Source: Candidatus Parcubacteria bacterium (GTDB lineage Bacteria > Patescibacteriota > Minisyncoccia > Phycocordibacterales > CAIJYI01). From it: a DNA stretch of 64,000 nucleotides. The position numbers and the translations under genes are program-made. Where the stretch lies: contig JAPLYL010000001.1 of NCBI GenBank assembly GCA_026395595.1, positions 6,174 through 70,173 on the forward strand, read 5' to 3'. The stretch's first letter is position 1; each line of letters opens with the position of its first letter. Below are positions 1,511 through 61,569 of the stretch, piece by piece. The notes under the pieces were generated by a model. That model did not search any database. It had not been told where the DNA came from and worked only from the letters and a program-made list of their open reading frames with translations.

Positions 1511-4192
1511 TTAACCGCCGGAACCGTTACACATCCAAACATAGTTTGCCATTGAGTCGGTGGTGTCAAAGAATGTTCCTCTTACGCAAGTATTATTAAC
1601 GGAAGTATTGCATAGCCCGTTAACAAGCGAAGTTACTGCAATTGTATCTGTTTGCCCGAGATAAGTAGCCGTAACCGTAGCCGTATTCGCGCTTTTTCCA
1701 ACAATCCACCCCTTATCTGTAATCGTATTCGTAACCGTAGCGACCCCAGCGGCGCTACTTGTCCAATTTGAAGACATGGTTACATCGATTGCCCCCGGAT
1801 GAGAAGAGCATTTAGCGCCAACTCCATACCATCCAATAGCCTGTATTCCCGTCTCTCCTACAGCAACAGTGGTCGTGAATGGACAAATAACAAATGTTGC
1901 CACATTTACCGTAAAAGGCACCCACTCAGAGGTGGCAGGATCTGTTACGCTGTTATCTTTTGTTCTTACTTTAAAAGTATAGGCACCCGAAGTGGCCCAA
2001 GTATGAGCCGTTTCTTGTATGGTTGCAGGAGTAACATATCCTGATACTGGAATAATTCCATCGGATACTCCATCGTCATTCCAATCAAATTGGTAGTATA
2101 CGTTATTTCCTTCTGTATCAGGGGCAGAATGAACATAAAAACCAACTGATTGCCCTTTACTCACCGTAATAGGCGAACCATTTCCTGAAAGGTTGGTAAT
2201 AATCGGAGGCTGAGCAGTGTTAGGAAGTATGGTTACTGTTACTGAGTCACTAACGGAAACACCAATCGAATTTGAACAGGTCATAGTGTAAGTGGTACTA
2301 GTGGTTATACCTCCGGGAGTAATTCCGGTGGAATTACTCCGATTTCTTGTCGTACTATTCCATTCAGTATCACCCGAAGAAACGCATGGATATTCAGAGT
2401 TAGTAGACGACCATGTAAGCACCGTGCTGTTTCCGGAAATGACAGAAGTCGGTGTAGCTGTAAGAGTAACGGTTGGATTCGGAACAACGGTCACTGTGAC
2501 AGACGCGCTAGCGTTGACACCTGCGGAATTGTGGCAAGTAAGAGTGGACCACTTGAGAATGGTGTTCGTTCCCGTTGCGATAGAAGATGGTGTTGCCGTA
2601 AGACTCACGGTTGGCGGCGCGACGCAAGCGCTTCCATCCCATGCATATCCAGTATTGCAGGAGAATTCACATTTCGCGACGGTATTAGGATCAGCGTAAG
2701 AGTAGTTAGTGGCGACTATAAGTCCGGTGAGATTAGTGCCGGTGTAAGCAGTTCCATTTGTTGGGACCGTTCCTCCACAGACGTATGGGTCTCTTGATGC
2801 GCTGCAAGAAGCAGTGTTGCCAGTGTTTACGCCAGTACAAGTCCATGTAGCGCTAGAACCAGCAGTCGGGAATGTTGGGAGAAAACCAGTTCCTGCTGAA
2901 CAAGCGGTATCAATACCAAAAGAAGTAACGCTTGAAGCATATGCTTTGTTGTTAGCCGTTCCACAAGCACCGTTGACCGGGATAAGAGCGGTTACTGTTA
3001 CTGAGTCGCTAGCGGAAACACCAACAGAATTGGAACAAGTAAGGGTGTAGGTAGTATCTGCAGTAACGACAGAACTAACTCCGGTAGCGTTATTGAGATT
3101 GCGAGTATTTCCTGTCCAGCCGCCAGTAGAAGTACAAGGATAAACACCACCAGTAGACGACCAAGTAAGCAAAGTACTATTCCCTGTAACAACAGAAGTC
3201 GGCGCAGCCGTAAGAGTAACGGTTGGATTCGGAACAACGGTAACTGTTGCGGAAGCGCTGGCAGTAACGCCGGCTGAATTATGACACGTAAGGGTGTAGG
3301 TGGTGGTTGTAGTGATACCGGTGACAGAATTCCCTGTTGTCAGATTTGATTTTATCTTTGTTCCGCTCCACGTTCCGCCTGATGCGGTACAGCTTGTGTT
3401 ATCAGAGACATTGGTAGTATCCCAAGTAAGGAGAGTGCTTCCATTCGGAGAGATAGAAGATGGTGTTGCCGTAAGACTCACGGTTGGCGGCGCGACGCAA
3501 GCGCTTCCATCCCATGCATATCCAGTATTGCAGGAGAATTCACATTTCGCGACGGTATTAGGATCAGCGTAAGAGTAATTAGTGGCGACTATAAGTCCGG
3601 TGAGATTAGTGCCGGTGTAAGCAGTTCCATTTGTTGGGACCGTTCCTCCACAGACGTATGGGTCTCTTGAAACAGTACAAGAAGCATTCGTTCCAGTATT
3701 TATGCCATTACACGACCAAGTAGCAGTGGAACCTGCGGCGGGAAAAGTTGGTAGAGAACCAGTTCCAGAAGAACAAGCCGTATCAACACCATAAGAGGTA
3801 ATCGTAGAAGCATACGTTTTGTTGTGAGCCGTACCGCAAACGCCGTTTACCGGGATAAGAGCGGTTACGATCACCGAACCGCTAGCGGAAACACCAACAG
3901 AGTTGGAACAAGTAAGGGTGTACGTTTTGTTCGCATTAACAACCAAACTGACCCCAGTACTATTAGAGCGGCTCCGGCTGGTGCTATTCCAGTCGGTTGA
4001 CCCAGAAGAAGTGCAGGCACCGGTCGTATTGGTTGACGACCATGTAAGCACCGTGCTGTTTCCGGAAATGACAGAAGTCGGTGTAGCTGTAAGAGTAACG
4101 GTTGGATTCGGAACAACGGTCACTGTGACAGACGCGCTAGCGTTGACACCTGCGGAATTGTGGCAAGTAAGAGTGCCAAATATGCTCCGCAA
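1511..4192 (-). CDS. Large secreted repeat protein with Ig-like (Big_2/PKD-like) modules and ~290-aa internal tandem repeats. The reading frame is separated from its probable signal peptide by a frameshift at an A7 tract; possibly phase-variable or a pseudogene.
   Basis: The 893-aa ORF has a repeated module TLTCHNSAGVxASASVTVTVVPNPTVTLTATPTSV...TWSST (3 copies) and a Cys-rich module VCGGTVPTNGTAYTGTNLTGLIVATNYSYADPNTVAKCEFSCNTGYAWDGSACV (2 copies). The C-terminal region resembles Big_2. The ORF begins at TTG with no signal peptide in frame. Confidence 0.75.
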   Translation of the reverse strand: MRSIFGTLTCHNSAGVNASASVTVTVVPNPTVTLTATPTSVISGNSTVLTWSSTNTTGACTSSGSTDWNSTSRSRSNSTGVSLVVNANKTYTLTCSNSVGVSASGSVIVTALIPVNGVCGTAHNKTYASTITSYGVDTACSSGTGSLPTFPAAGSTATWSCNGINTGTNASCTVSRDPYVCGGTVPTNGTAYTGTNLTGLIVATNYSYADPNTVAKCEFSCNTGYAWDGSACVAPPTVSLTATPSSISPNGSTLLTWDTTNVSDNTSCTASGGTWSGTKIKSNLTTGNSVTGITTTTTYTLTCHNSAGVTASASATVTVVPNPTVTLTAAPTSVVTGNSTLLTWSSTGGVYPCTSTGGWTGNTRNLNNATGVSSVVTADTTYTLTCSNSVGVSASDSVTVTALIPVNGACGTANNKAYASSVTSFGIDTACSAGTGFLPTFPTAGSSATWTCTGVNTGNTASCSASRDPYVCGGTVPTNGTAYTGTNLTGLIVATNYSYADPNTVAKCEFSCNTGYAWDGSACVAPPTVSLTATPSSIATGTNTILKWSTLTCHNSAGVNASASVTVTVVPNPTVTLTATPTSVISGNSTVLTWSSTNSEYPCVSSGDTEWNSTTRNRSNSTGITPGGITTSTTYTMTCSNSIGVSVSDSVTVTILPNTAQPPIITNLSGNGSPITVSKGQSVGFYVHSAPDTEGNNVYYQFDWNDDGVSDGIIPVSGYVTPATIQETAHTWATSGAYTFKVRTKDNSVTDPATSEWVPFTVNVATFVICPFTTTVAVGETGIQAIGWYGVGAKCSSHPGAIDVTMSSNWTSSAAGVATVTNTITDKGWIVGKSANTATVTATYLGQTDTIAVTSLVNGLCNTSVNNTCVRGTFFDTTDSMANYVWMCNGSGG
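2290..4190 (-). repeat. Intragenic tandem DNA repeats (period ~870 nt) within the surface-protein gene.
   Basis: Near-identical ~120-nt blocks at 2581-2700 and 3451-3580. Identical spurious antisense ORF peptides recur (2292..2699 vs 3300..3572; 2305..2487 vs 3871..4116). Confidence 0.7.
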
Positions 4193-5305: not shown

Positions 5306-5656
5306 TTACACTCGAGGGTAAACGATATTTACCCCCTGTGGTCCGTCATAATTTCCGAGAGTATTTTGCATAAAACCGATAATTCCCCAAATAGTAATGA
5401 GAACAAACAAAGCGACCACCCCCCATACCATGATATTTTTTCCTTTTTCGTTGGCGTTTTTATCCTCTTGATTAAGGAGAAATAAAGCTAATCCGTAAAA
5501 GAAGGCAACAAAAGCAAGAGTTCCGAAGATATTTATGAGGGATAATGTTACCGATAAAAACATATCAAGAGTCGTTCCAAGAGTAGTAAAACCAGAGACA
5601 GCAAAAGGAACAAAAGAGAGACTGCCTATAAAAAATAAAAGCATGTTTTTTTTCAT
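5306..5656 (-). CDS. VirB2/TrbC-like (T4SS pilin-like) small membrane protein, paralog 1.
   Basis: 116 aa. Signal peptide, hydrophobic helix FFYGLALFLL, a charged loop (EDKNANEKGK), then MVWGVVALFVLITIWGIIGFMQNT. This is a typical two-helix pilin architecture and is near-identical in its C-terminus to paralog 3. Confidence 0.55.
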   Translation of the reverse strand: MKKNMLLFFIGSLSFVPFAVSGFTTLGTTLDMFLSVTLSLINIFGTLAFVAFFYGLALFLLNQEDKNANEKGKNIMVWGVVALFVLITIWGIIGFMQNTLGNYDGPQGVNIVYPRV

Positions 5657-6860: not shown

Positions 6861-7292
6861 TTAACCGGTGGGCCCTCCTATCTGCGCGATCGTCCCGACA
6901 ATGGCATTCGCCAAAAGCCACGAACCGAAAAGAACCGCCGTTCCGATAACCGCCCACAGAAAAGCATTTTTTGCAGAGGTGAGTTTCGTTTCATTTCCTT
7001 GCGCGGTGAGAAAAAGAAATCCGGAATAAAGAATAAAGAACGTGGCAACAGGAACGCCTATTTGCAAAAGAATACGAAGAACACTCTGAATAAATTCGGG
7101 TAAAGAGTGAATATTCGGAGTAATCGGTTCAGCCGCCAAGTTTATTTTTGGAGGAGAATCGGCAAAAACTGATACGCCAGTAGAAAGTAACAAAACAACA
7201 AAAGCACCAACTCCAAATGTTCCGGACGGGGGTACAACCCCCGTCCGGCGACGAGCGATGGCTCTCTTTTCATTTGTCATTTCGTTTTTCAT
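6861..7292 (-). CDS. VirB2/TrbC-like small membrane protein, paralog 5 (longer N-terminal region).
   Basis: 143 aa. Motif FILYSGFLFLTAQGNETKLTSAKNAFLWAVIGTAVLFGSWLLANAIVGTIAQIGGPTG, with a C-terminal GG as in VirB2. Confidence 0.5.
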   Translation of the reverse strand: MKNEMTNEKRAIARRRTGVVPPSGTFGVGAFVVLLLSTGVSVFADSPPKINLAAEPITPNIHSLPEFIQSVLRILLQIGVPVATFFILYSGFLFLTAQGNETKLTSAKNAFLWAVIGTAVLFGSWLLANAIVGTIAQIGGPTG

Positions 7293-7455
7293 TGGAAATT
7301 TGAAATTTTATTACCCCCCCATCGACCCAATCGTATTTTGAAAAACTTTTAAGGTGTTTATATATTGATTTAATTATATCATATCAATAAAAATTTCGAC
7401 GAAGTTTATCCACAGAGTTGCACGTACTTGTTGAATGTAGCAAACGAATACTTGA

Positions 7456-9613: not shown

Positions 9614-10180
9614 TTATGTTTTGTGACAAATAAGAATCATACCGTAATGATATTCTCCTGCGGGAGCTTCCTGAAGGAAAACAAAACCTTGTTCTTCAAA
9701 CATGGCGCGAGCAATATCTTGAGAAACGACGGTTTCTTCTTTCGGGCCGACATTACCGAAACTTCCCGCCCAATCAACAAGCAAAAGTTTTCCGCCATTC
9801 TTCAAAACGCGCTTTATTTCCAGAACAGCCGTGTGTTTATCTTCCGTTTGAAAAAGCGTATTGGCAAAGATAACCGCATCAAGCGAAGCCTCTTTTATTT
9901 TTGACCCGCCAATCTCTTCAATGTTTCCCCAAAGAATCTCAACGTTTTTGAGGTGCTCCGCATCTACTTTTTTTATAATCAAAGGAAGCAATTCTCTTTG
10001 TATTTCCACGGCATAAACTTTTCCACTGTGAACATATTTTGTCGCCGCAACGGTAAAAACGCCTGATCCCGCGCCAAAATCGGCAACGAGAGAGTCATCA
10101 AGCAACAAGAGAGGTTTTATCGTTTCTTCAGGATTGAGCATCATAAATACAGTATAGCAAAGATGCAAACTCCACGCCAA
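9614..10180 (-). CDS. Class I SAM-dependent methyltransferase.
   Basis: Motif I VADFGAGSGVFTV, plus post-I acidic and LLLVDW motifs. The true start may be the internal Met of MMLNPEE. Confidence 0.7.
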   Translation of the reverse strand: MAWSLHLCYTVFMMLNPEETIKPLLLLDDSLVADFGAGSGVFTVAATKYVHSGKVYAVEIQRELLPLIIKKVDAEHLKNVEILWGNIEEIGGSKIKEASLDAVIFANTLFQTEDKHTAVLEIKRVLKNGGKLLLVDWAGSFGNVGPKEETVVSQDIARAMFEEQGFVFLQEAPAGEYHYGMILICHKT

Positions 10181-10200
10181 GAATACTGTGGAAAGCTTGC

Positions 10201-10254
10201 CGGAGAATACACAGGACTACCCTGTGTACACAGGGTAGTCCTGTGTATTCTCCG
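10201..10254. repeat. Perfect 54-bp palindrome CGGAGAATACACAGGACTACCCTGTGTA|CACAGGGTAGTCCTGTGTATTCTCCG, built from nested TACACAGG/CCTGTGTA units around a central TGTACA.
   Basis: Exact reverse-complement symmetry read from the sequence. It lies between the methyltransferase start and the uvrC stop, with no flanking T-tract. Confidence 0.8.
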
Positions 10255-10411
10255 CCAGACGTGGGTGACCTAATTTTGACCTAAATTTTAATGACCGAAG
10301 GGAATATAAAATTGGAAATGCTCTTGTGGTAAAAGAAGCGAAGCGACTATTAAAATGAAAATACTCCTATAGTGCTCTGACCCCGGCGGCGGATCGAGTA
10401 AATGTTGAAAC

Positions 10412-12061: not shown

Positions 12062-12140
12062 TCGTCATCCCGTGCAGGGACACGGGATCCACGTAAGAGG
12101 TGTTAACGACGTGGATACCGGGTCAAGCCCGGTATGACGA
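12062..12140 (+). repeat. E-element copy 1. Structured GC-rich element: closing helix TCGTCAT/ATGACGA enclosing three hairpins (CCCGTG/CACGGG; CCACG-16 nt-CGTGG; ACCGGG/CCCGGT) joined by AT dinucleotides. Candidate four-way-junction ncRNA or MITE core.
   Basis: Read directly from the sequence. The same architecture occurs at 15533-15603 and 60139-60215 with compensatory stem changes. Flanked by the imperfect inverted repeat TTCTAGAACCTGAATC (12014-12029) / GATTCACAGTCTAGAA (12154-12169). Confidence 0.6.
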
Positions 12141-12627: not shown

Positions 12628-12810
12628 ATAGTTCTAAATTTAAGTAAAACAAAAACTTTTAACCCTTTTCATTAACAAACAAACAAAGGCCCGATTATTT
12701 CGGGCCTTTTAATTTTATCTTATTAACAAAAAAGAATTAAGAAAAAAGCAACAAGCAAAATGAAGTCATCCTTTTTGCTTTTTTCTTATTGCTTTTTGCT
12801 TCAGCTAAAT

Positions 12811-13637: not shown

Positions 13638-13662
13638 AAAACACCCGAGCGGGTGTTTTTTC
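13638..13662. terminator. Rho-independent terminator (ACACCCG ag CGGGTGT + T6), bidirectional between rpmA and rplI.
   Basis: Stem-loop with a T-run on the plus strand and an A-run before it. Confidence 0.6.
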
Positions 13663-13701
13663 ATGCTTTTTTCTTTTTTCTTGTTGCTTTCCCTCTTCGT
13701 C

Positions 13702-15532: not shown

Positions 15533-15603
15533 TCGTCATTGCGGGCTTGACCCGCAATCCACGGCTAAACGACGTGGATTCTGATTTTCATCAGAATGAC
15601 GAC
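15533..15603 (+). repeat. E-element copy 3 (TCGTCAT | TGCGGG-CCCGCA | AT | CCACG-gctaaacga-CGTGG | AT | TCTGAT-ATCAGA | ATGACGA). It is flanked by an 11-bp inverted repeat and a direct repeat, a MITE-like signature.
   Basis: Inverted repeat GCAACTGCTCA (15514-15524) / TGAGCAGTTAC (15646-15656). Direct repeat CCGTCAAAA (15505-15513) / CCGTCAAAAAA (15656-15666). Confidence 0.6.
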
Positions 15604-28591: not shown

Positions 28592-28674
28592 ACATTTAGA
28601 ATAAAGAATAAAGGAAAAAGTAACAAGGAAGAGCTCTCGTACTTTTAACTCCTTTTTTGCTTATTGCTTGTTTC

Positions 28675-30012
28675 TTATTGCTTTTTTAATAATTCTCTCG
28701 CCGCTTTTTTATATCCTTCCACTTCCGGTTGTCCAAACGGATCTACTCCCCACAAATTTCCCAAAAATACCGTTTCCATCATTTTTAGCATGAAATACTG
28801 CCCGAGATAATACTCGTTTATTTGCGGCAAAACCGTTTCAACAAAAGGAAGTTCTTTTTCTTTGTATGATTCCATTGTCCCTCCAAGAATTGACGCCATA
28901 ATCTTTTGAAAATCTTTTGAAGCAATATCGGGAACAAGGGTTTCAAAAGGAGAAGAAGGCGGGATGGAAATATATTTTTCTCCAAAATCGGTTGAGTAAA
29001 TAAAGTTTGTGAATTTATCTTTTGGACCTCCCAAGTACAATTGTACCATAGAGTGCAAATCAACGGTCCCGAGAGACACTAGAGGGGTCATACCCGCATA
29101 CGCTTCATTTCCTTTTTTGTCATATTTTTTTCCAAGGCTTTCAGCGAAAAGCTGTCTTCCCCATTTTCCGACAGACTCCAATTCCGTGTGAAAAAAGAAA
29201 TGGTTATAGATGTTTAGATTTTTTTTATGAGACAAATAATCTATTACCGAGGAGGTAAGAGCGGGGTTTTCCGTCAAAGAGTCTGAGAGAAAAGCACCCC
29301 TCAAAGAAAGCCCTCCGGCAATAAATTCTGAAACATTGACTCCCGCCAACATGAGTGGAAAAACCCCAACGGGAGAAAAAACAGAATACCTTCCACCGAC
29401 ATTTTTCGGCACGGGAAGAACATTCATTTCTTTTTCCAGCGCAAGTTTCCAAAATAAAGAATTTTCATCCGTGGTTATCACGACGCGAGATAAAGCTTCT
29501 TTTTCTCCAAACTTGGAAGAAAGCGTTTCAAACAAAACCATAGCATTGGCAATGGTTTCCACCGTGGAACCGGATTTCGTAATGACATTCAAAATAACTT
29601 CTTTTGAGTCATGAATGTTTTCTTCAATAACTTTCTTAAGGATTTCCATTTCCCGGGGGTTATTCGTGTCTGAAAACAGCATTTTAGGAGACCGAGGAAG
29701 CAGTATCTCAAATTTCGGAAAGATAGCATCGTACACCGCCTGCGCCCCGAGATTTGAACCGCCGATGCCGACAACGATAATATATTTTAACGGGTTACCT
29801 AAAAATTTCCCCGCCATTTCTTCCGTTTTTTGGAAAAGTTTTTTGTCGTCAGGCAACAATAAAAACGATTCAGGAACGTCATACGTTCTTTTTTCAACGA
29901 CTTCTTTGAGAAACCCGAGATAATTGGAAAGAAGCGGAACGACAGAAGACACTTCCTCCTCTGAGATACGCGCAGTATCTTTGTATTTGATGGTTATGGT
30001 GTTTTGAGACAT
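28675..30012 (-). CDS. pgi: Glucose-6-phosphate isomerase.
   Basis: IIVVGIGGSNLGAQAV and GGRYSVFSPVG motifs. Start at ATG 30012 (MSQNTITIKYK). Confidence 0.85.
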   Translation of the reverse strand: MSQNTITIKYKDTARISEEEVSSVVPLLSNYLGFLKEVVEKRTYDVPESFLLLPDDKKLFQKTEEMAGKFLGNPLKYIIVVGIGGSNLGAQAVYDAIFPKFEILLPRSPKMLFSDTNNPREMEILKKVIEENIHDSKEVILNVITKSGSTVETIANAMVLFETLSSKFGEKEALSRVVITTDENSLFWKLALEKEMNVLPVPKNVGGRYSVFSPVGVFPLMLAGVNVSEFIAGGLSLRGAFLSDSLTENPALTSSVIDYLSHKKNLNIYNHFFFHTELESVGKWGRQLFAESLGKKYDKKGNEAYAGMTPLVSLGTVDLHSMVQLYLGGPKDKFTNFIYSTDFGEKYISIPPSSPFETLVPDIASKDFQKIMASILGGTMESYKEKELPFVETVLPQINEYYLGQYFMLKMMETVFLGNLWGVDPFGQPEVEGYKKAARELLKKQ

Positions 30013-30020
30013 GTTTTTAT

Positions 30021-30127
30021 AAAATTTCCAATTACCAATTTCAAATTTCCAATAAAAATCCAAATTTGATATAAAACGTCATTTCTTTCGTTCGTTTGGA
30101 AATTTGAAATTAGATATTTGAAATTTT
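30021..30127. repeat. AT-rich inverted repeat (~31-bp arms built from TTGGAAATT/GAAATTG units) immediately 5' of the pgi start codon. The proximal arm is near-identical to the dnaG leader.
   Basis: Arm 30021-30053 is the reverse complement of arm 30096-30127, with about 3 mismatches. Confidence 0.6.
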
Positions 30128-30134
30128 TTATTAA

Positions 30135-31370
30135 CTATCCCCTTCCTCTCGCAATCATTGCTTCCGATATTCTGGAAAGAGCAATAATATATGCCGAATT
30201 CCTTACGGTTGTTTTTTTCTCATTACTGACTTTCCACACTTCATCAAAAGAAGTCCTCATGATTTTTTCCAATTTTTGAAGCACCTCTTTTTCTTCCCAA
30301 TAATACCCGTACGCGTTTTGCACCTGTTCAAAATAGGACACCGCGACACCCCCCGCATTCGTCAGAATATCAGGAAGAACCATAACATTATTTTTTTCAA
30401 ACACGATATCCGCTTCAGGAGTTACCGGCCCATTGGCGAGTTCCGCCACCAGCTTTGTTTTGAGAGTCTGCGCGTCTTTTTCCGTAACAGAGTTTTCAAG
30501 CGCGGCAGGAATAAAAATGTCAACTTCCTCTGCGAACTGTTCTGTGGAAGTAATATCTTTCGCTTTCGGATACCCAGAGAGCATTCCTTTTTCGTCTTTG
30601 TATTTGGCAACATCGTCAACGTCCAAACCCTCTTTATTTTCTATAACACCTTTAGAGTCGGAAACGGAAATAATCTTGTATCCTGCCTTCTGCATAATCA
30701 TTGCGACGTTTCTTCCCGCGTTTCCAAAGCCCTGAATGGCAACCGTCGCGCCTTTTTCAATGCCAAGTTTTTTTGCCGCAGAATCAATAACGTAAAAACC
30801 TCCTTGTGCCGTGGAATAAGAACGGGCTTTTGATCCGCCAAGAGAAAGCGGTTTTCCGGTAATGACTCCCGCCTCATGGTGTCCTCTTATCGTTTCATAT
30901 TCGTCCAGCATCCAGCTCATAATCCTTCCGTCGGTGTTGACATCCGGAGCGGGCACATCAACACGATCGCCGATAATACCGGAAACGGCGCGGATATAAC
31001 CGCGGGAAAGTCTTTCCAGTTCTCCGACAGAAAGTTCTTTCGGATTTACGATGATACCGCCCTTTCCCCCTCCAAGAGGAATATCCACCACCGCGCATTT
31101 GAATGCCATCCATGCAGAAAGCGCTTTTACTTCGCCGATATTAACGTTTTGATGAAACCGAATTCCTCCTTTAAACGGCCCGCGCGCATCGTTATATTGA
31201 GACCGATACCCGGTGAAAACTTTCACTTCACCATTGTCCATTTTAACAGGAATGGATACCTCTAAAAAACGCTTCACCGACAACATTTGCCGATAGATAT
31301 TTTCAGGAATATCTAAAAACTGTCTCGTACCTTCTATCTGTCGTAAAAACTTATCAAATTCGTTTTGCAT
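30135..31370 (-). CDS. Glu/Leu/Phe/Val dehydrogenase family, paralog 2.
   Basis: GGGKGGIIVNPKELS and GFGNAG motifs. Start at ATG 31370 (MQNEFDKFLRQIEG). Confidence 0.85.
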   Translation of the reverse strand: MQNEFDKFLRQIEGTRQFLDIPENIYRQMLSVKRFLEVSIPVKMDNGEVKVFTGYRSQYNDARGPFKGGIRFHQNVNIGEVKALSAWMAFKCAVVDIPLGGGKGGIIVNPKELSVGELERLSRGYIRAVSGIIGDRVDVPAPDVNTDGRIMSWMLDEYETIRGHHEAGVITGKPLSLGGSKARSYSTAQGGFYVIDSAAKKLGIEKGATVAIQGFGNAGRNVAMIMQKAGYKIISVSDSKGVIENKEGLDVDDVAKYKDEKGMLSGYPKAKDITSTEQFAEEVDIFIPAALENSVTEKDAQTLKTKLVAELANGPVTPEADIVFEKNNVMVLPDILTNAGGVAVSYFEQVQNAYGYYWEEKEVLQKLEKIMRTSFDEVWKVSNEKKTTVRNSAYIIALSRISEAMIARGRG

Positions 31371-31480
31371 ACTTGTAAAAATAAAATAGTAAAAAGTCTT
31401 CTTATTATAGCAAAAATAAGAAAAGTATGAAAACAATGAGTTTCCATACTTTTTACAACTCGACAAAAAAAGAAAAGATG

Positions 31481-40327: not shown

Positions 40328-40426
40328 TACTACAACACATAACTGGTTTTGTAAACAACAACCCCGCTTTAGCGGGGTTGTTGTTTGTCGTCCTTTTTCC
40401 TTTTTTCTTATTGCTTTTTCCTCAGT

Positions 40427-41806: not shown

Positions 41807-43510
41807 TTATTTTGAAGCATTCAACTTATTTAGTTTCTCCGACAATACTTTGCAGGTACCGAGCAGTTCCGCCGCTTTTCCGGAGTCATGTAGTAACTCT
41901 GCCCGACGCAGTTCATTCATGGCTTCCGTCAAAGAGTCTTTTATTACTTCTTTTTCAAAATTAAGGAACAAATCTTCGATTTCATTTCGAATAGATGCGG
42001 TACCGCTATAAAAGGCTTCGGCTTCAAAAATAAGGGCGTTCTTTTCTTGTTCTTCTATTTCTCTCACCAACCCGGCAATCGTTTTATAACGTTCCTGTAA
42101 TTCCTCGGGAGAAAAAGACGGTTCAGGAGAAGCTTGTTGCCAAAGAATTACTCCGCGAATCTTTTTTTCAATAGCCTCCCTTCTTGATGCCGGCATGCGT
42201 TTTTGTATCGGCGCAATCTCTTCTTTTTCGTAAGGGGATGCCTCTTCGTTTTGTTTGAGCATTACTTTTCTGAGCTCTTCATATACCGCATCACGCGAAA
42301 CATCCAAAACAGCAGCAATGACATCAACGAAATGTGCTTGATCAATTTTGCTTTCAATGTTTGCCACAATCGGCAAAACATTTTTCTCAACCGATAAACG
42401 GAATGCTCTTTTGTCCGCCGACTTCTTTTGTAAAACAGAAAGGAAAAATTCAACGATATGTCTGGCGGAAGTTATGGCCTCTTTCCATTTTTCCGGAGAT
42501 TCAAGAATAAGATCAGCAGGATCTTTTTCTCCGGACAATTCTATAGCGTGAACGTCAAAACCCATTTGCAATCCGGGTATGGCGCTTTTCTTGGCCGCAT
42601 TCAACCCCGCATCGTCGCTGTCAAAGGAAAATAAAAGTTTGTCTGCAAAGCGTTTCAACATTTCCAAATGGAAACCGGTCAGCGCCGTTCCTGAAACCGC
42701 CACGGAATTTTTTGTTCCCGACTGATGAGCCATAATCAGATCCATCTGCCCTTCCACAAGGATTGCCGCTCCCGCTTCGCGTATCGCCGTTTTTGCAAGA
42801 GATAATCCGAAAAGTATTTTTGATTTATTGTATAAAGGAGTTTCCGGAGAGTTTACATACTTAGCAGGGTCGTCAGATTGAAACACTCGCCCAGTAAAAC
42901 CGACGACGCGGCCGGAACTGTCGCAGAGTGGAAACATAATGCGTGAGCGGAAACGATCATACATTCCTTTTTCACCACGAATAGACATTCCCGTTTTTTC
43001 CATTTCAATCGGCGTATACCCTCGAGACAAAAGATAATTTTCTAAAACATGCCAATCATTCGGCGCAAAACCAATCTGGAATTCGTCCATGGTCGCGGGT
43101 AAAAGACCGCGCTTTCGGAGATACTGTATCGCTTCGGTGTTCTTACGAAGTTCTTTTCGATAAAAAAGCGTCGCGTCAGAAAGCAACATAAAAAGTCTGT
43201 CACGTTCATTTCGTTCCGCAGGATTTTCACGAGTGAGTACCACTCCCGCACGGTCAGCCAACACACGAAGCGCTCCGGGAAAATCAGTGCCTTCTATTTC
43301 TTCCACAAAACTGAACATATCCCCGCCTTTGTTACAGCCAAAGCAATGATATGATCCGCGGTCGGGCGATACCATAAAGCTCGGCGTTTTTTCATTATGA
43401 AAAGGACACCGCGCGCGGAAGTTTCCGCCGGCGCGATCCAATTTGATATACGATCCGACAACGCTCACAATATCCAGTTTTTCTTTGATTTGTTCTACGG
43501 GGGAAGACAT
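41807..43510 (-). CDS. dnaG: DNA primase.
   Basis: Zinc ribbon CPFHNEKTPSF...CFGC, a TOPRIM region, and conserved dnaG-rpoD gene order. Start at ATG 43510 (MSSPVEQIKEK). Confidence 0.9.
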   Translation of the reverse strand: MSSPVEQIKEKLDIVSVVGSYIKLDRAGGNFRARCPFHNEKTPSFMVSPDRGSYHCFGCNKGGDMFSFVEEIEGTDFPGALRVLADRAGVVLTRENPAERNERDRLFMLLSDATLFYRKELRKNTEAIQYLRKRGLLPATMDEFQIGFAPNDWHVLENYLLSRGYTPIEMEKTGMSIRGEKGMYDRFRSRIMFPLCDSSGRVVGFTGRVFQSDDPAKYVNSPETPLYNKSKILFGLSLAKTAIREAGAAILVEGQMDLIMAHQSGTKNSVAVSGTALTGFHLEMLKRFADKLLFSFDSDDAGLNAAKKSAIPGLQMGFDVHAIELSGEKDPADLILESPEKWKEAITSARHIVEFFLSVLQKKSADKRAFRLSVEKNVLPIVANIESKIDQAHFVDVIAAVLDVSRDAVYEELRKVMLKQNEEASPYEKEEIAPIQKRMPASRREAIEKKIRGVILWQQASPEPSFSPEELQERYKTIAGLVREIEEQEKNALIFEAEAFYSGTASIRNEIEDLFLNFEKEVIKDSLTEAMNELRRAELLHDSGKAAELLGTCKVLSEKLNKLNASK

Positions 43511-43513
43511 GAT

Positions 43514-43550
43514 TTTTAAAATTTCCAATTTTCAATTTCTAATTTCCAAA
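43514..43550 (-). promoter_or_regulatory. Conserved AT-rich leader (TTTGGAAATTAGAAATTGAAAATTGGAAATTTTAAAAATC-ATG), about 35 of 40 nt identical to the pgi leader.
   Basis: Direct comparison with 30013-30053 on the same (minus) strand. Confidence 0.55.
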
Positions 43551-43604
43551 ACTCTTGCTTTTTTTTTATATTCCGGTATAATGGTAGTATCACTATGAAG
43601 AAGC

Positions 43605-44147
43605 TCACATACGGGTTCCGTCCCGTACGGGGGCTTTTTCTTTTCTCCCTTCTTTTGCGTACTGCAAACGTTGTTTAAATTCATTCAAAAAAATAATTTC
43701 TCCGGAAACCGCATTGCGCAACAATGCCGATGCTTTTTTGTAATTTGGACAAATGAGAGTAGAGAAACGTTCCTTCTCTTGCAAAAAAGTAACCAAACAA
43801 GCGAAATCGCCATCACCGGAAACAATAATCGCTTTATCGTACGTTTTTTCATACATATCTGAAACGGTTTGCAGTACCAATTCCGCATCACAGTTCCCTT
43901 TAATTTCACCGTCGCCAAAGGGGATGATCGGTTTAAATACCACAATATATCCCCAATTTTGAAAATCTCGATACAGACGAGTATTTTGAGAAATAAACCC
44001 TATAAATATATAAGCTTTTTTAACTCCGTATTTTTCATCAAGCCAAACTCTCAGTTTTTTGTAATCAAGTTTCCATCCGAGTTCTTTCACTCCTCTATGA
44101 AGGTTTGCTCCGTCAATATAGGCAAAATTGTTTTTATTGTATTTCAT
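43605..44147 (-). CDS. NYN-domain (LabA-like, PIN-like) protein.
   Basis: FAYIDGANL...DAELV...IVSGDGDF motifs are typical of the NYN/LabA family. Confidence 0.7.
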   Translation of the reverse strand: MKYNKNNFAYIDGANLHRGVKELGWKLDYKKLRVWLDEKYGVKKAYIFIGFISQNTRLYRDFQNWGYIVVFKPIIPFGDGEIKGNCDAELVLQTVSDMYEKTYDKAIIVSGDGDFACLVTFLQEKERFSTLICPNYKKASALLRNAVSGEIIFLNEFKQRLQYAKEGRKEKAPVRDGTRM

Positions 44148-51892: not shown

Positions 51893-52204
51893 TTATCGTT
51901 TTTCAAGAACTTCAACCCGCCGAACAACCTTATCAAACTCGTTCCGATGTACCGTTTCGTCCAGACTCAAAAGAGTTCCCATCTGCTTCTTCTCAAGCGA
52001 AGAAAGACGACGATTGGTTTCCCCTTGTTCAATAGTGAGATTAGTAAGGCGAGAATCTATGCCATCAAGACGAGAGTCTATGCCGTCAAGACGGGAATTA
52101 ACGGAAGAAAATTTTTGTTCAATTTTTTCAAACCCGTCTACTACAAGGCGCGCGACCATTTCAATACCGGTTTCTTTTTCTTTCATTTTTATTTCTTTTT
52201 TCAT
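51893..52204 (-). CDS. Small coiled-coil protein with 7-aa tandem repeats (DSRLDGI, ~2.5 copies). Paralog of 61213..61569.
   Basis: Shares the N-terminal GFEKIE..SSV block and the C-terminal E(Q/E)..ETNRRL.S..KKQ.GT.LSLDETVHRNEF...VRRVE.LEK block with its paralog. The repeat number differs. Confidence 0.6.
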   Translation of the reverse strand: MKKEIKMKEKETGIEMVARLVVDGFEKIEQKFSSVNSRLDGIDSRLDGIDSRLTNLTIEQGETNRRLSSLEKKQMGTLLSLDETVHRNEFDKVVRRVEVLEKR

Positions 52205-60138: not shown

Positions 60139-60215
60139 CGTCATTCCGGACGAGATCCGGAATCCATAAGTTCGAGCACCCGCCCTGGATCCCGGGTCGC
60201 GGCCCGGGATGACGA
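60139..60215 (+). repeat. E-element copy 2 (CGTCAT | TCCGGA-cgaga-TCCGGA | AT | CCA-taag...-TGG | AT | CCCGGG-tcgcgg-CCCGGG | ATGACGA), 7 nt after the rnr stop.
   Basis: Same architecture and junction nucleotides as the copies at 12062 and 15533. The stems differ but remain complementary. Confidence 0.6.
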
Positions 60216-60258: not shown

Positions 60259-60777
60259 ATGAAAGAAGAAAACAAAGAAGCAAAAATAACATCTCCGTTG
60301 GAAGAAGCTTCCATAAAAGCAACACAATGGATAGGCACTCCTTTTTCTCTCGTGGTTCATACGGTATTTTTCATCGGAATTTTTTTCCTGAAAAATTTCG
60401 GATTTTCTACCGAAGAGATACTTCTTATTTTAACCACCGCCGTATCTCTGGAAGCAATATATTTGGCTATTTTCATTCAGATGACCATTAACAGGCAAGA
60501 AGCAAAACTCCACGAAGTCCGTGAAGACATTGAAGAACTCGGCGAGGATGTTGAAGAAATCGGAAAAGACGTTGATGAACTATCCGAAGACGTTGAAGAG
60601 ATAGGAAAAGACGTTGATGAACTCGGCGAAGACTTTGAAGAGATAACGGAAGACATGGAAGAAGATGAGAAAAAAGAGGAAGCCTATCGTTCCGAAAGAA
60701 ACAAAAATCTGCAAAAAATAGAAACCACTCTGCAGTCGCTGATTATAGAGTTGGAAAAAATGAAAGAGAAGAAATAG
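60259..60777 (+). CDS. Membrane protein with two TM helices and an acidic coiled-coil tail containing a tandem 13-aa (39-nt) repeat EDVEEIGKDVDEL (DUF1003-like architecture).
   Basis: 172 aa. The TM helices are VVHTVFFIGIFFL and LLILTTAVSLEAIYLAIFIQ, followed by two exact repeat copies. Confidence 0.5.
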   Translation: MKEENKEAKITSPLEEASIKATQWIGTPFSLVVHTVFFIGIFFLKNFGFSTEEILLILTTAVSLEAIYLAIFIQMTINRQEAKLHEVREDIEELGEDVEEIGKDVDELSEDVEEIGKDVDELGEDFEEITEDMEEDEKKEEAYRSERNKNLQKIETTLQSLIIELEKMKEKK

Positions 60778-61212: not shown

Positions 61213-61569
61213 TTATTGTTTTTCTAATATCTCCACCCGACGGACAATCCCGTTAAATTCATTTCGGTGTACGGTTTCATCAAGACTTAAAACGGTACCG
61301 AGTTGTTTTTTATCAATAGAAGCAAGCCTGCGGTTGGTTTCTTTTTGTTCTTCCTCTATCGAGTAAACTCTTTGCTTGATGAAAGAAACGTCATCTTTTA
61401 ATGAAGAAACGTCGCCTTTTAGTAAAGAAACGTCGCTCTTCAACGAAGAAACGTCGCCCTTGACTGAGGATATTTCCGACTCTATTTTTTCAAATCCGTT
61501 CATGGTAAATACAGCGAGCTTTTCAATAAGCTCCCCAAGTTTTTCCAACGTCATTTTTTCCTTTTTCAT
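61213..61569 (-). CDS. Small coiled-coil protein with 7-aa tandem repeats (DVSSLKG-like, ~4 copies). Paralog of 51893..52204.
   Basis: Shares conserved N- and C-terminal blocks with its paralog. The middle region is encoded by 21-nt tandem repeats (GAAGAAACGTCGCC...). Confidence 0.6.
   Translation of the reverse strand: MKKEKMTLEKLGELIEKLAVFTMNGFEKIESEISSVKGDVSSLKSDVSLLKGDVSSLKDDVSFIKQRVYSIEEEQKETNRRLASIDKKQLGTVLSLDETVHRNEFNGIVRRVEILEKQ

Follow-up and report, generated by a model that had tools for sequence, protein, structure and literature searches.

A dispersed TTNGAAA heptanucleotide repeat as the probable source of the likeness between the pgi and dnaG upstream regions in a Parcubacteria genome

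The stretch of DNA analysed here, referred to as the window, is 64 kb of the genome of a Candidatus Parcubacteria bacterium (contig JAPLYL010000001.1, positions 6,174 to 70,173), and all window counts cover those 64 kb. Within it, the genes pgi and dnaG are preceded by closely similar sequences that lead directly to the start codon:

30013-30053, minus strand, 41 nt: pgi upstream sequence, ATTGGAAATTTGAAATTGGTAATTGGAAATTTTATAAAAAC, then ATG
43511-43550, minus strand, 40 nt: dnaG upstream sequence, TTTGGAAATTAGAAATTGAAAATTGGAAATTTTAAAAATC, then ATG

The original prediction, made from the letters of the window, had quoted both leaders, and the minus-strand reading before each ATG is exactly as it gave them. 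The gene identities were confirmed by Pfam (PGI at 1.3e-21 for pgi; DnaG zinc ribbon, DNAG_N and Toprim domains for dnaG). The upstream neighbours, also by Pfam, are a Glu/Leu/Phe/Val-type dehydrogenase gene before pgi (30135-31466, here called gdh) and an NYN-domain gene before dnaG (43605-44147). Of the 41 columns of a global alignment, 35 are matches, 5 mismatches and 1 a gap, in agreement with the claimed identity of about 35/40, and the two regions were matched over 37 nt at 89% in a repeat search. The likeness was then compared with that of all upstream regions, a check that the original prediction had itself proposed, using the best-shift identity of the 40-nt regions before 42 window genes (861 pairs). 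The pgi/dnaG pair scored 33, against a mean of 15.0 (standard deviation 2.35) and a runner-up of 22, so the likeness is real and is not explained by generic AT-rich composition. The concern that only two copies might exist does not apply either, as further copies lie at 30096-30135 and 7292-7314.

The repeated unit is 7 nt long rather than the 9 nt first proposed. Tandem Repeats Finder (TRF) reported a period of 7, with 4.0-4.4 copies and 80-83% matches, at 30023-30053, 30099-30126 and 43520-43549. One arm of the element consists of four tandem TTNGAAA units followed by a TTTTA(T)AAAA tail, about 40 nt in all, and its second-to-last unit is typically a variant (TTGGATA, TTAGATA, TTGGTAA or TTGAAAA). 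Four copies are present in the window, in both orientations, and all four abut gene boundaries. They are given here together with the loop that separates two of them:

30013..30052, minus strand: pgi-proximal arm, on the mRNA strand TTGGAAA TTTGAAA TTGGTAA TTGGAAA + TTTTATAAAAAC, ending at the pgi ATG (30012-30010)
30053..30095, minus strand, 43 nt: loop of the gdh-pgi element, beginning ACGAACGA and T-rich toward the 3' arm
30096..30135, plus strand: inverted arm, TTGGAAA TTTGAAA TTAGATA TTTGAAA + TTTTTTATTAAC
43511..43550, minus strand: solo arm before dnaG, TTGGAAA TTAGAAA TTGAAAA TTGGAAA + TTTTAAAAATC, then ATG
7292..7314, plus strand: short two-unit copy, TTGGAAA TTTGAAA + TTTTATTAC

The pgi-proximal arm is the 3' arm of a palindromic element that makes up the whole 123-nt gdh-pgi spacer from stop codon to start codon, its two 40-nt arms being 83% complementary and 43 nt apart. 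The inverted arm touches the gdh stop codon and, on the mRNA strand, begins there. The start of the loop, ACGAACGA, is a core common to the copies at L001, L035 and L044 (L numbers denote loci of other genomes). For the solo dnaG arm, no inverted partner was found in the 94-nt spacer after the NYN-domain gene. The short copy has the tail type of the full arms (TTGGAAATTTGAAATTTTATTAC) and shares its first base with the complement of the start codon of a type IV secretion system (T4SS)-pilin-like gene (6861-7292, minus strand). It is reversed relative to the pilin gene. The gdh-side arm is also reversed, and the pgi and dnaG arms are forward, with the ATG 7-8 nt beyond GAAATTTT. Arrays of at least three units occur three times in the window against 0.06 in shuffled sequence, and the motif GAAATTNNNAATTGGAAATTTTA, with up to 3 mismatches, has six matches against 0.05 expected. 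More generally, no other TRF class is as common in the window as period 7, with 15 arrays of several unit types against 1.4 in shuffles that preserve composition. Mechanical calling of open reading frames (ORFs) extends pgi (start 30063) and dnaG (43528) to TTG codons upstream of or inside the heptamer array (TTGGAAA).

The two settings of the arm differ in predicted RNA structure. A long AU hairpin of about 33 bp with a 43-nt loop is predicted for the gdh-pgi spacer (-34.5 kcal/mol, z -5.1), and the same spacer at L001 gives -28.6 kcal/mol (z -4.9). The solo-arm leader of dnaG is essentially unstructured (z +1.96). We considered whether array leaders are unusually unstructured as a class and rejected this, as the pgi and dnaG leaders come 14th and 18th among 42 start regions by the ensemble energy of -40..+20.

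At the orthologous positions in relatives, the element is retained, decayed, replaced or absent:

L001 (pgi 72%): gdh-pgi spacer with the inverted-array architecture seen in the window
L122, L123 (pgi 70%): gdh-pgi spacer of 17-20 nt, without the element
L209 (dnaG 93%): gdh-pgi spacer of 21 nt, without the element
L125 (pgi 63%): doublet of TTAGAAA units, here located in the pgi-ROK spacer and ending TTTTT directly before ATG
L202, L203 (98%): dnaG leader with a decayed copy, TTGGAAA TTAAAAA CTGAAAA TTGGAAA TTTTATA
L204, L205 (93%): dnaG leader without the array
L206, L207 (83%): dnaG leader with another heptamer, (AAAAGCT)x4.5, up to a GTG start

Between the window and L202, the array and tail have diverged by 14%, compared to 25% at four-fold degenerate sites of dnaG and 5% in the dnaG-rpoD spacer, suggesting that constraint on the array is weak or absent. 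Judged by these rates, the divergence of the array between close relatives is near neutral and the dnaG-rpoD spacer is clearly constrained. More distant relatives differ in the presence or absence of the array or in the type of unit, not in unit number. Three relatives share a -10-like box (TATACC, TATACA or TATAAT) some 65 nt before dnaG, which would put the dnaG array in the 5' untranslated region (5'UTR). Other heptamer families were also seen at gene boundaries in the relatives, namely (AAAGCTA)n in both orientations, (AAAAGTA)x8 and (TAATTTT)x8.6 (L206 9965-9997, 13906-13936 and 16291-16423; L204 8918-8947), and such families also occupy the dnaG-leader position where the window has its TTNGAAA arm.

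Copies at unrelated loci share details of the window arms. A single variant unit occurs at the identical position in all five full arms of the window and L001, and the variant unit TT(G/A)GATA is found also at L022, L044, L108 and L125. Because this fixed variant unit and the tail are shared, the window arms look copied whole and not independently expanded. The loop core ((A/T)GAACGA...TTTTTAGACATTTTGACA) and the tail TTTTTATAAAAAAC were found again at other loci of one metagenome-assembled genome (MAG) of Paceibacterota: at L044 between metG and a pilin gene, and at L035 beside csoR and cupredoxin genes. The same MAG has a solo arm between ATP-synthase genes (L022). No ATG follows the tail at L044, so the "TATAAAAAC" before pgi is part of the element and not of pgi.

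The breadth of the family was examined by searching the species genomes of GTDB with a 32-nt pattern, TTNGAAATTNGAAATTNNNWATTNGAAATTTT, which was found at at least 120 genome loci. Among the matches listed, 70 of 120 loci have Candidate Phyla Radiation (CPR)/Patescibacteria labels, and the others include Nitrospirota, Planctomycetota, Bacteroidota, Campylobacterales and two Pacearchaeota. The doublets have a fixed polarity, 5'-(TTTCNAA)n-loop-(TTNGAAA)n-3'; among the matches listed, the inverted partner lies upstream for 21 arrays and downstream for 1, and the 11 full doublets are all of one polarity. An ATG-initiated ORF begins within 2-23 nt of 14 forward and 9 reverse arrays out of the 144 listed, and the strand bias of arrays toward start codons is weak. 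We rejected a phage-borne origin, as the pattern has no matches in IMG/VR viral contigs. One contig, from a MAG labelled Gammaproteobacteria (L040, 2598-4914), has a unit of more than 70 nt three times in 2.3 kb, each copy carrying a degenerate heptamer run (TTGGGAT/TTGGAAT), then a (TTAGAAA)4 array and a conserved 3' flank.

Many arrays in other genomes lie inside genes. Among the matches listed, about 53 of 122 are within long ORFs, on the opposite strand and in frame (L011, L025, L043, L049, L054, L080, L109 and about 45 others), with translations such as KISNFKFQISN, KFPISNFQFP and KISNFQFLISK. The genes include those for GuaA, leucyl-tRNA synthetase (LeuRS), RlmN, alanyl-tRNA synthetase (AlaRS) and a P-type ATPase. 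No TTNGAAA copy inside an ORF was found within the window. Assembly chimeras were rejected as an explanation, as both flanks continue one gene in frame. In alignments to PDB structures (GuaA, RlmN), the arrays fall in variable loops with little or no net gain in length. Nearly all of 35 CPR homologues of LeuRS (55-59% identity) have a segment with a 7-residue period before VFTTR; examples from homologues P0241-P0280 and from L049/L080 are IKFQIPNSKFQIP, VKFPISNFQFPI and IKFSISNSQFSIP. The equivalent place in E. coli LeuRS is occupied by a beta-hairpin, ITFNVNDYDNTLT, equal in length to the CPR segment. From these sequences, the CPR segment looks like a diverged heptamer-array product in place of the E. 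coli hairpin. Simple recent net insertion was rejected for the arrays in ORFs, as length changes little and the diverged segment is common to most CPR LeuRS homologues; the LeuRS segment may be an ancient decayed array or the product of repeated homogenisation.

The original prediction had explained the likeness by a common cis-element made of repeated units and had named a translational enhancer or ribosome standby site, a binding site for a global regulator and a small duplicated promoter cassette as candidates. The common repeated-unit element is well founded, but none of the candidate functions found support as that of a cis-element specific to these genes. Orthologous sites show no conservation and units have been replaced in relatives, which contradicts a regulon site. 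Nor do copies in both orientations, at unrelated loci and inside ORFs fit a gene-specific element. A promoter cassette is disfavoured by a negative consensus scan and by the wrong spacing to the ATG. A sigma-70-type promoter has hexamers like TTGACA and TATAAT with 16-18 nt between them, the -10 hexamer carrying A as its second and T as its sixth base; the scan found no such promoter in 29900-30250 and none on the coding strand at dnaG, where the matches in 43400-43750 are solely on the opposite (plus) strand. The best match read by hand in the pgi arm, TTGAAA-17-TATAAA, lacks T at the last -10 position and lies 3 nt from the ATG. GGAAAT, proposed as a weak Shine-Dalgarno (SD) sequence, is unlikely to act as one, given that relatives use TTAGAAA units and that about 15-18 nt separate the last GGA from the ATG. 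An SD site has a GGAGG-like core 5-10 nt before the start codon; no SD core (GGAG, GAGG or AGGA) was found in -20..-4 of pgi or dnaG, and one is present at 7 of the 42 window genes. A TATAAT-like box (TANWWT) ends 4-9 nt before the ATG in 9 of the 42 genes, for example TATAAT-TAACCT-ATG at 5656, and the convincing boxes of leaderless type end 5-8 nt from the ATG. The sequence of the window suggests that leaderless or SD-independent initiation is frequent in the source genome, and the array may contribute generically to SD-independent translation. We also rejected the gdh-pgi hairpin as an intrinsic terminator, which would be a short GC-rich stem-loop with a U-run after it: a scan found no terminator-like site in 29900-30250, the stem is AU-rich and the loop is 43 nt, and canonical GC-rich terminators occur elsewhere in the window. 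Rfam 15 gave no match at gathering score anywhere in the window, nothing at E<=1 in 29950-30200, and two sub-threshold chance matches alone in 43450-43650.

Several known repeat systems resemble the TTNGAAA element in part. A repetitive extragenic palindromic (REP) unit is an imperfect GC-rich palindrome. Bertels and Rainey are said to have described, in 2011, the REP sequences of gamma-proteobacteria, their REPIN doublets and the REP-associated tyrosine transposases (RAYTs). The element shares with that system the occurrence as extragenic singlets and inverted hairpin doublets, the position between co-directional genes and after stop codons, the many dispersed loci, and presence or absence between relatives. 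Unlike REP units, the arms are AT-rich direct heptamer repeats, and a solo arm has no self-structure. A GC-rich hairpin family in the window, TCGTCAT...ATCCACG, comes closer to REP than the arms do. For a miniature inverted-repeat transposable element (MITE), we looked for terminal inverted repeats, a length of 50-500 bp and presence or absence at orthologous sites; in these respects the element resembles MITEs, being 123 nt long with inverted arms of 40 nt, missing from relatives whose empty sites measure 17-21 nt, and having copies with its loop core at other loci. The flanks of the element are A/T runs within the palindrome, in which no unambiguous direct repeat (target-site duplication) can be read. 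Rickettsia palindromic elements (RPEs), reportedly described by Ogata and colleagues in 2000, are said to be palindromes of 100-150 bp that lie in frame in genes. Like RPEs, and like Borg repeats (PMC9879509), the TTNGAAA element has in-frame genic copies, here in ORFs of other genomes, that are tolerated in surface or variable regions. It differs from RPEs in being a heptamer array, and from Borg repeats in that genic Borg units reportedly have lengths divisible by three.

Heptamer repeats provide the closer comparison. Direct repeats of TAACTGA are found in marine Beggiatoaceae, some Cyanobacteria and Bacteroidetes; their function is unknown and a translational role has been suggested (MacGregor 2015, PMC4679880). 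Like those repeats, which come in 2-6 copies per set, the element has a 7-nt unit, is mostly intergenic and scattered across phyla, and has stop codons on the forward strand, so that copies within ORFs are reversed (PMC4679880). The TAACTGA sets often end a few nt before start codons without SD (PMC4679880), as the pgi and dnaG arms do; the pilin copy and the gdh-side arm are reversed. It belongs to a different family of similar kind, since the unit is TTNGAAA with a free third position. Start-codon orientation is 14 against 9 among the matches listed here, whereas 147 of 170 sets in BOGUAY point toward the start codon (PMC4679880); polar inverted doublets with a conserved loop occur here, whereas BOGUAY had one inverted repeat (PMC4679880). 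Among the long simple sequence repeats (LSSRs) of many bacteria, heptamers form the dominant class; they are mainly intergenic and are proposed to originate by polymerase slippage (Mrazek et al. 2007 and Mazel et al. 1990, as cited in PMC4679880 and PMC4692102). The head-to-tail 7-nt units above chance, with period 7 as the top tandem class in the window, are like these LSSRs and the short tandemly repeated repetitive (STRR) sequences of cyanobacteria. Unlike them, the window copies are short (4-5 units) and degenerate, with no length polymorphism between close assemblies. The GGGAATC/GGGGATT heptamers of Xanthomonas and Nostoc (Rehm et al. 2015, PMC4692102) are likewise intergenic, with some inverted repeats able to form stem-loops, and their arrays vary between close species (PMC4692102). 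Those repeats are G-rich and form quadruplexes (PMC4692102), whereas TTNGAAA is A/T-rich with no quadruplex potential. Because the hallmarks of REP (a self-palindromic unit, RAYT) and of MITEs (target-site duplication, parent insertion sequence (IS)) do not show, or cannot be read, in the 64-kb window, we place the TTNGAAA element among the intergenic heptanucleotide repeats. It is such a repeat with a REPIN-like doublet habit, and a member of no named family.

We favour, with a probability of about 0.6, the reading that the element is a dispersed heptanucleotide repeat of fast turnover with generic effects on expression, in which case the pgi/dnaG likeness would reflect shared repeat ancestry and not co-regulation. 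Arms would be copied as units, by recombination or by a MITE- or REPIN-like process, and slippage during replication would then remodel them 7 nt at a time. They would persist where AT-rich spacers tolerate them, and in protein loops too if the array is stop-free and in frame. A solo arm would make an A/U-rich, SD-less leader like most leaders of the source genome, and a doublet would form a long AU hairpin between co-transcribed genes that probably affects mRNA stability, processing or translational coupling. Several observations weigh against this reading. Unit number is equal in near-identical assemblies, with all 4 units and the tail kept in L202/L203 and in the window compared to L202. 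Relatives also have heptamer arrays directly before the dnaG start, with a different unit. Arrays frequently end 2-23 nt before ATG-initiated ORFs among the matches listed; this and the arrays before dnaG both hint that selection may act on some property of arrays at start codons. The 64-kb window yielded no target-site duplication, transposase or RAYT-type gene, and no genome-wide RAYT or parent-IS search was made.

The main rival, which we consider unlikely, is an element that acts on translation close to start codons. The UUNGAAA repeats would either serve ribosomes as an A/U-rich, SD-independent (S1-type) standby or enhancer site, or be bound by a post-transcriptional regulator. Its best support is that different heptamer arrays occupy the equivalent place before dnaG in relatives. 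The pgi and dnaG arms also end 7-8 nt before an ATG without SD in a window where only 7 of 42 genes have an SD core, the solo dnaG leader is unstructured (z +1.96), 14 of the 144 arrays listed have an ATG-initiated ORF within 2-23 nt in other CPR genomes, and TAACTGA in Beggiatoaceae is a published parallel (PMC4679880). Reverse arrays are nearly as common beside an ATG, however (9 against 14 among the matches listed), and the pilin gene of the window is one such case. Array leaders are average in predicted structure (14th and 18th of 42), and the pgi arm would be sequestered in the -34.5 kcal/mol hairpin if co-transcribed with gdh. Close relatives express these genes from spacers of 17-21 nt or from unrelated leaders, and at L044 the tail occurs without a following ATG. 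The occurrence of both orientations and of palindromic doublets would suit a role at the DNA level over one at the RNA level, in which a nucleoid-associated protein or a global regulator would bind the array as a structured or bent platform located at gene boundaries. The unit contains an AAATTT palindrome, the A3T3 tracts (GAAATTT) return to helical phase every three units (21 bp, about two turns), and all four window copies abut gene boundaries. We nevertheless regard this as quite improbable: orthologous sites are not conserved, unrelated heptamers replace TTNGAAA, divergence between close relatives is near neutral, copies lie inside the coding sequences of many housekeeping genes, and no candidate binding protein was identified.

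The possibility that the arm carries -35 and -10 hexamers and drives a leaderless transcript, or one with a very short leader, seems to us very improbable indeed. It draws on the hand-read TTGAAA-17 nt-TATAAA of the pgi arm and on the apparent use of leaderless-type promoters in the window (the TANWWT box 4-9 nt before the ATG in 9 of 42 genes). The consensus scan, however, found no promoter in the pgi region or on the coding strand of the dnaG arm, where TAGAAA/TAAAAA stand at the equivalent positions. TATAAA and TAAAAA lack the final T and end 2-3 nt from the ATG, compared to 5-8 nt in the clear leaderless candidates, and the -10-like box that three relatives have some 65 nt before dnaG is better conserved and would put the array in the 5'UTR. 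A wider reading is offered only as a tentative and rather doubtful extension. TTNGAAA arrays would be more than simple repeats, namely a hitherto undescribed CPR-wide family of polar palindromes able to copy themselves into spacers between stop and start codons, and into genes if free of stops. They would seed peptide segments of 7-residue period, such as the KF.I.N..F.I beta-hairpin before VFTTR in most CPR LeuRS, and copies at start codons would be retained because they tune SD-independent initiation.

Other repeats were noted in the window. Two further heptamer arrays lie next to the genes discussed above:

28592..28674, minus strand: pgi-ROK spacer with a second heptamer family, (AAGCAAT)-type units behind the pgi stop codon, then inverted (CTTTATT)-type units reaching the ROK ATG
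40387..40422, minus strand: A-rich array of heptamers (AAAAAGC/AATAAGA/AAAAAGG), immediately behind the rpoD stop codon and ahead of a GC-rich terminator hairpin

The second heptamer hairpin fills the pgi-ROK spacer, which is conserved in L209. The array after rpoD has sister copies at 12765-12800 and 13653-13690, after two other stop codons. On the coding strand, A-rich (AAGCAAN)n arrays directly follow four stop codons, including those of pgi and rpoD (12765-12800, 13653-13690, 28654-28689 and 40387-40422); two of the four just precede canonical GC-rich terminators, and the one behind the 12811-13254 gene has an inverted copy with which it pairs (12729-12755 and 12771-12797). The window also contains a second dispersed repeat, a GC-rich hairpin between conserved flanks, TCGTCAT(stem-loop-stem)ATCCACG, present in four copies (12062-12140, 15533-15577, 60171-60215), of which two form an inverted REPIN-like doublet. 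Its stems show compensatory changes (CCCGTG/CACGGG, TGCGGG/CCCGCA, CCCGGG/CCCGGG, ACCGGG/CCCGGT). At 10198-10257, upstream of ORF 9614-10180 (minus strand), is a palindrome of 30+30 nt, 97% complementary and without a spacer (TGCCGGAGAATACACAGGACTACCCTGTGT / ACACAGGGTAGTCCTGTGTATTCTCCGCCA). Repeats that appear to be coding include internal repeats of 81-300 nt in the large ORF 1511-4192 and arrays of 21-nt period at 52046-52098, 60523-60645 (acidic) and 61383-61461.

For work on CPR genomes, these results mean that look-alike upstream regions can be copies of a repeat rather than regulons, and that TTG codons within arrays mislead ORF callers in the prediction of start codons. Heptamers close to start codons, known from Beggiatoaceae, cyanobacteria and Xanthomonas, are now extended to Patescibacteria with a new unit; the polar doublet architecture and the clear rapid turnover at orthologous sites are new aspects. 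The arrays inside ORFs may matter more than the pgi/dnaG likeness from which the analysis started. If the wider reading were true, very small genomes would draw both intercistronic RNA hairpins and new protein-loop sequence from TTNGAAA arrays.

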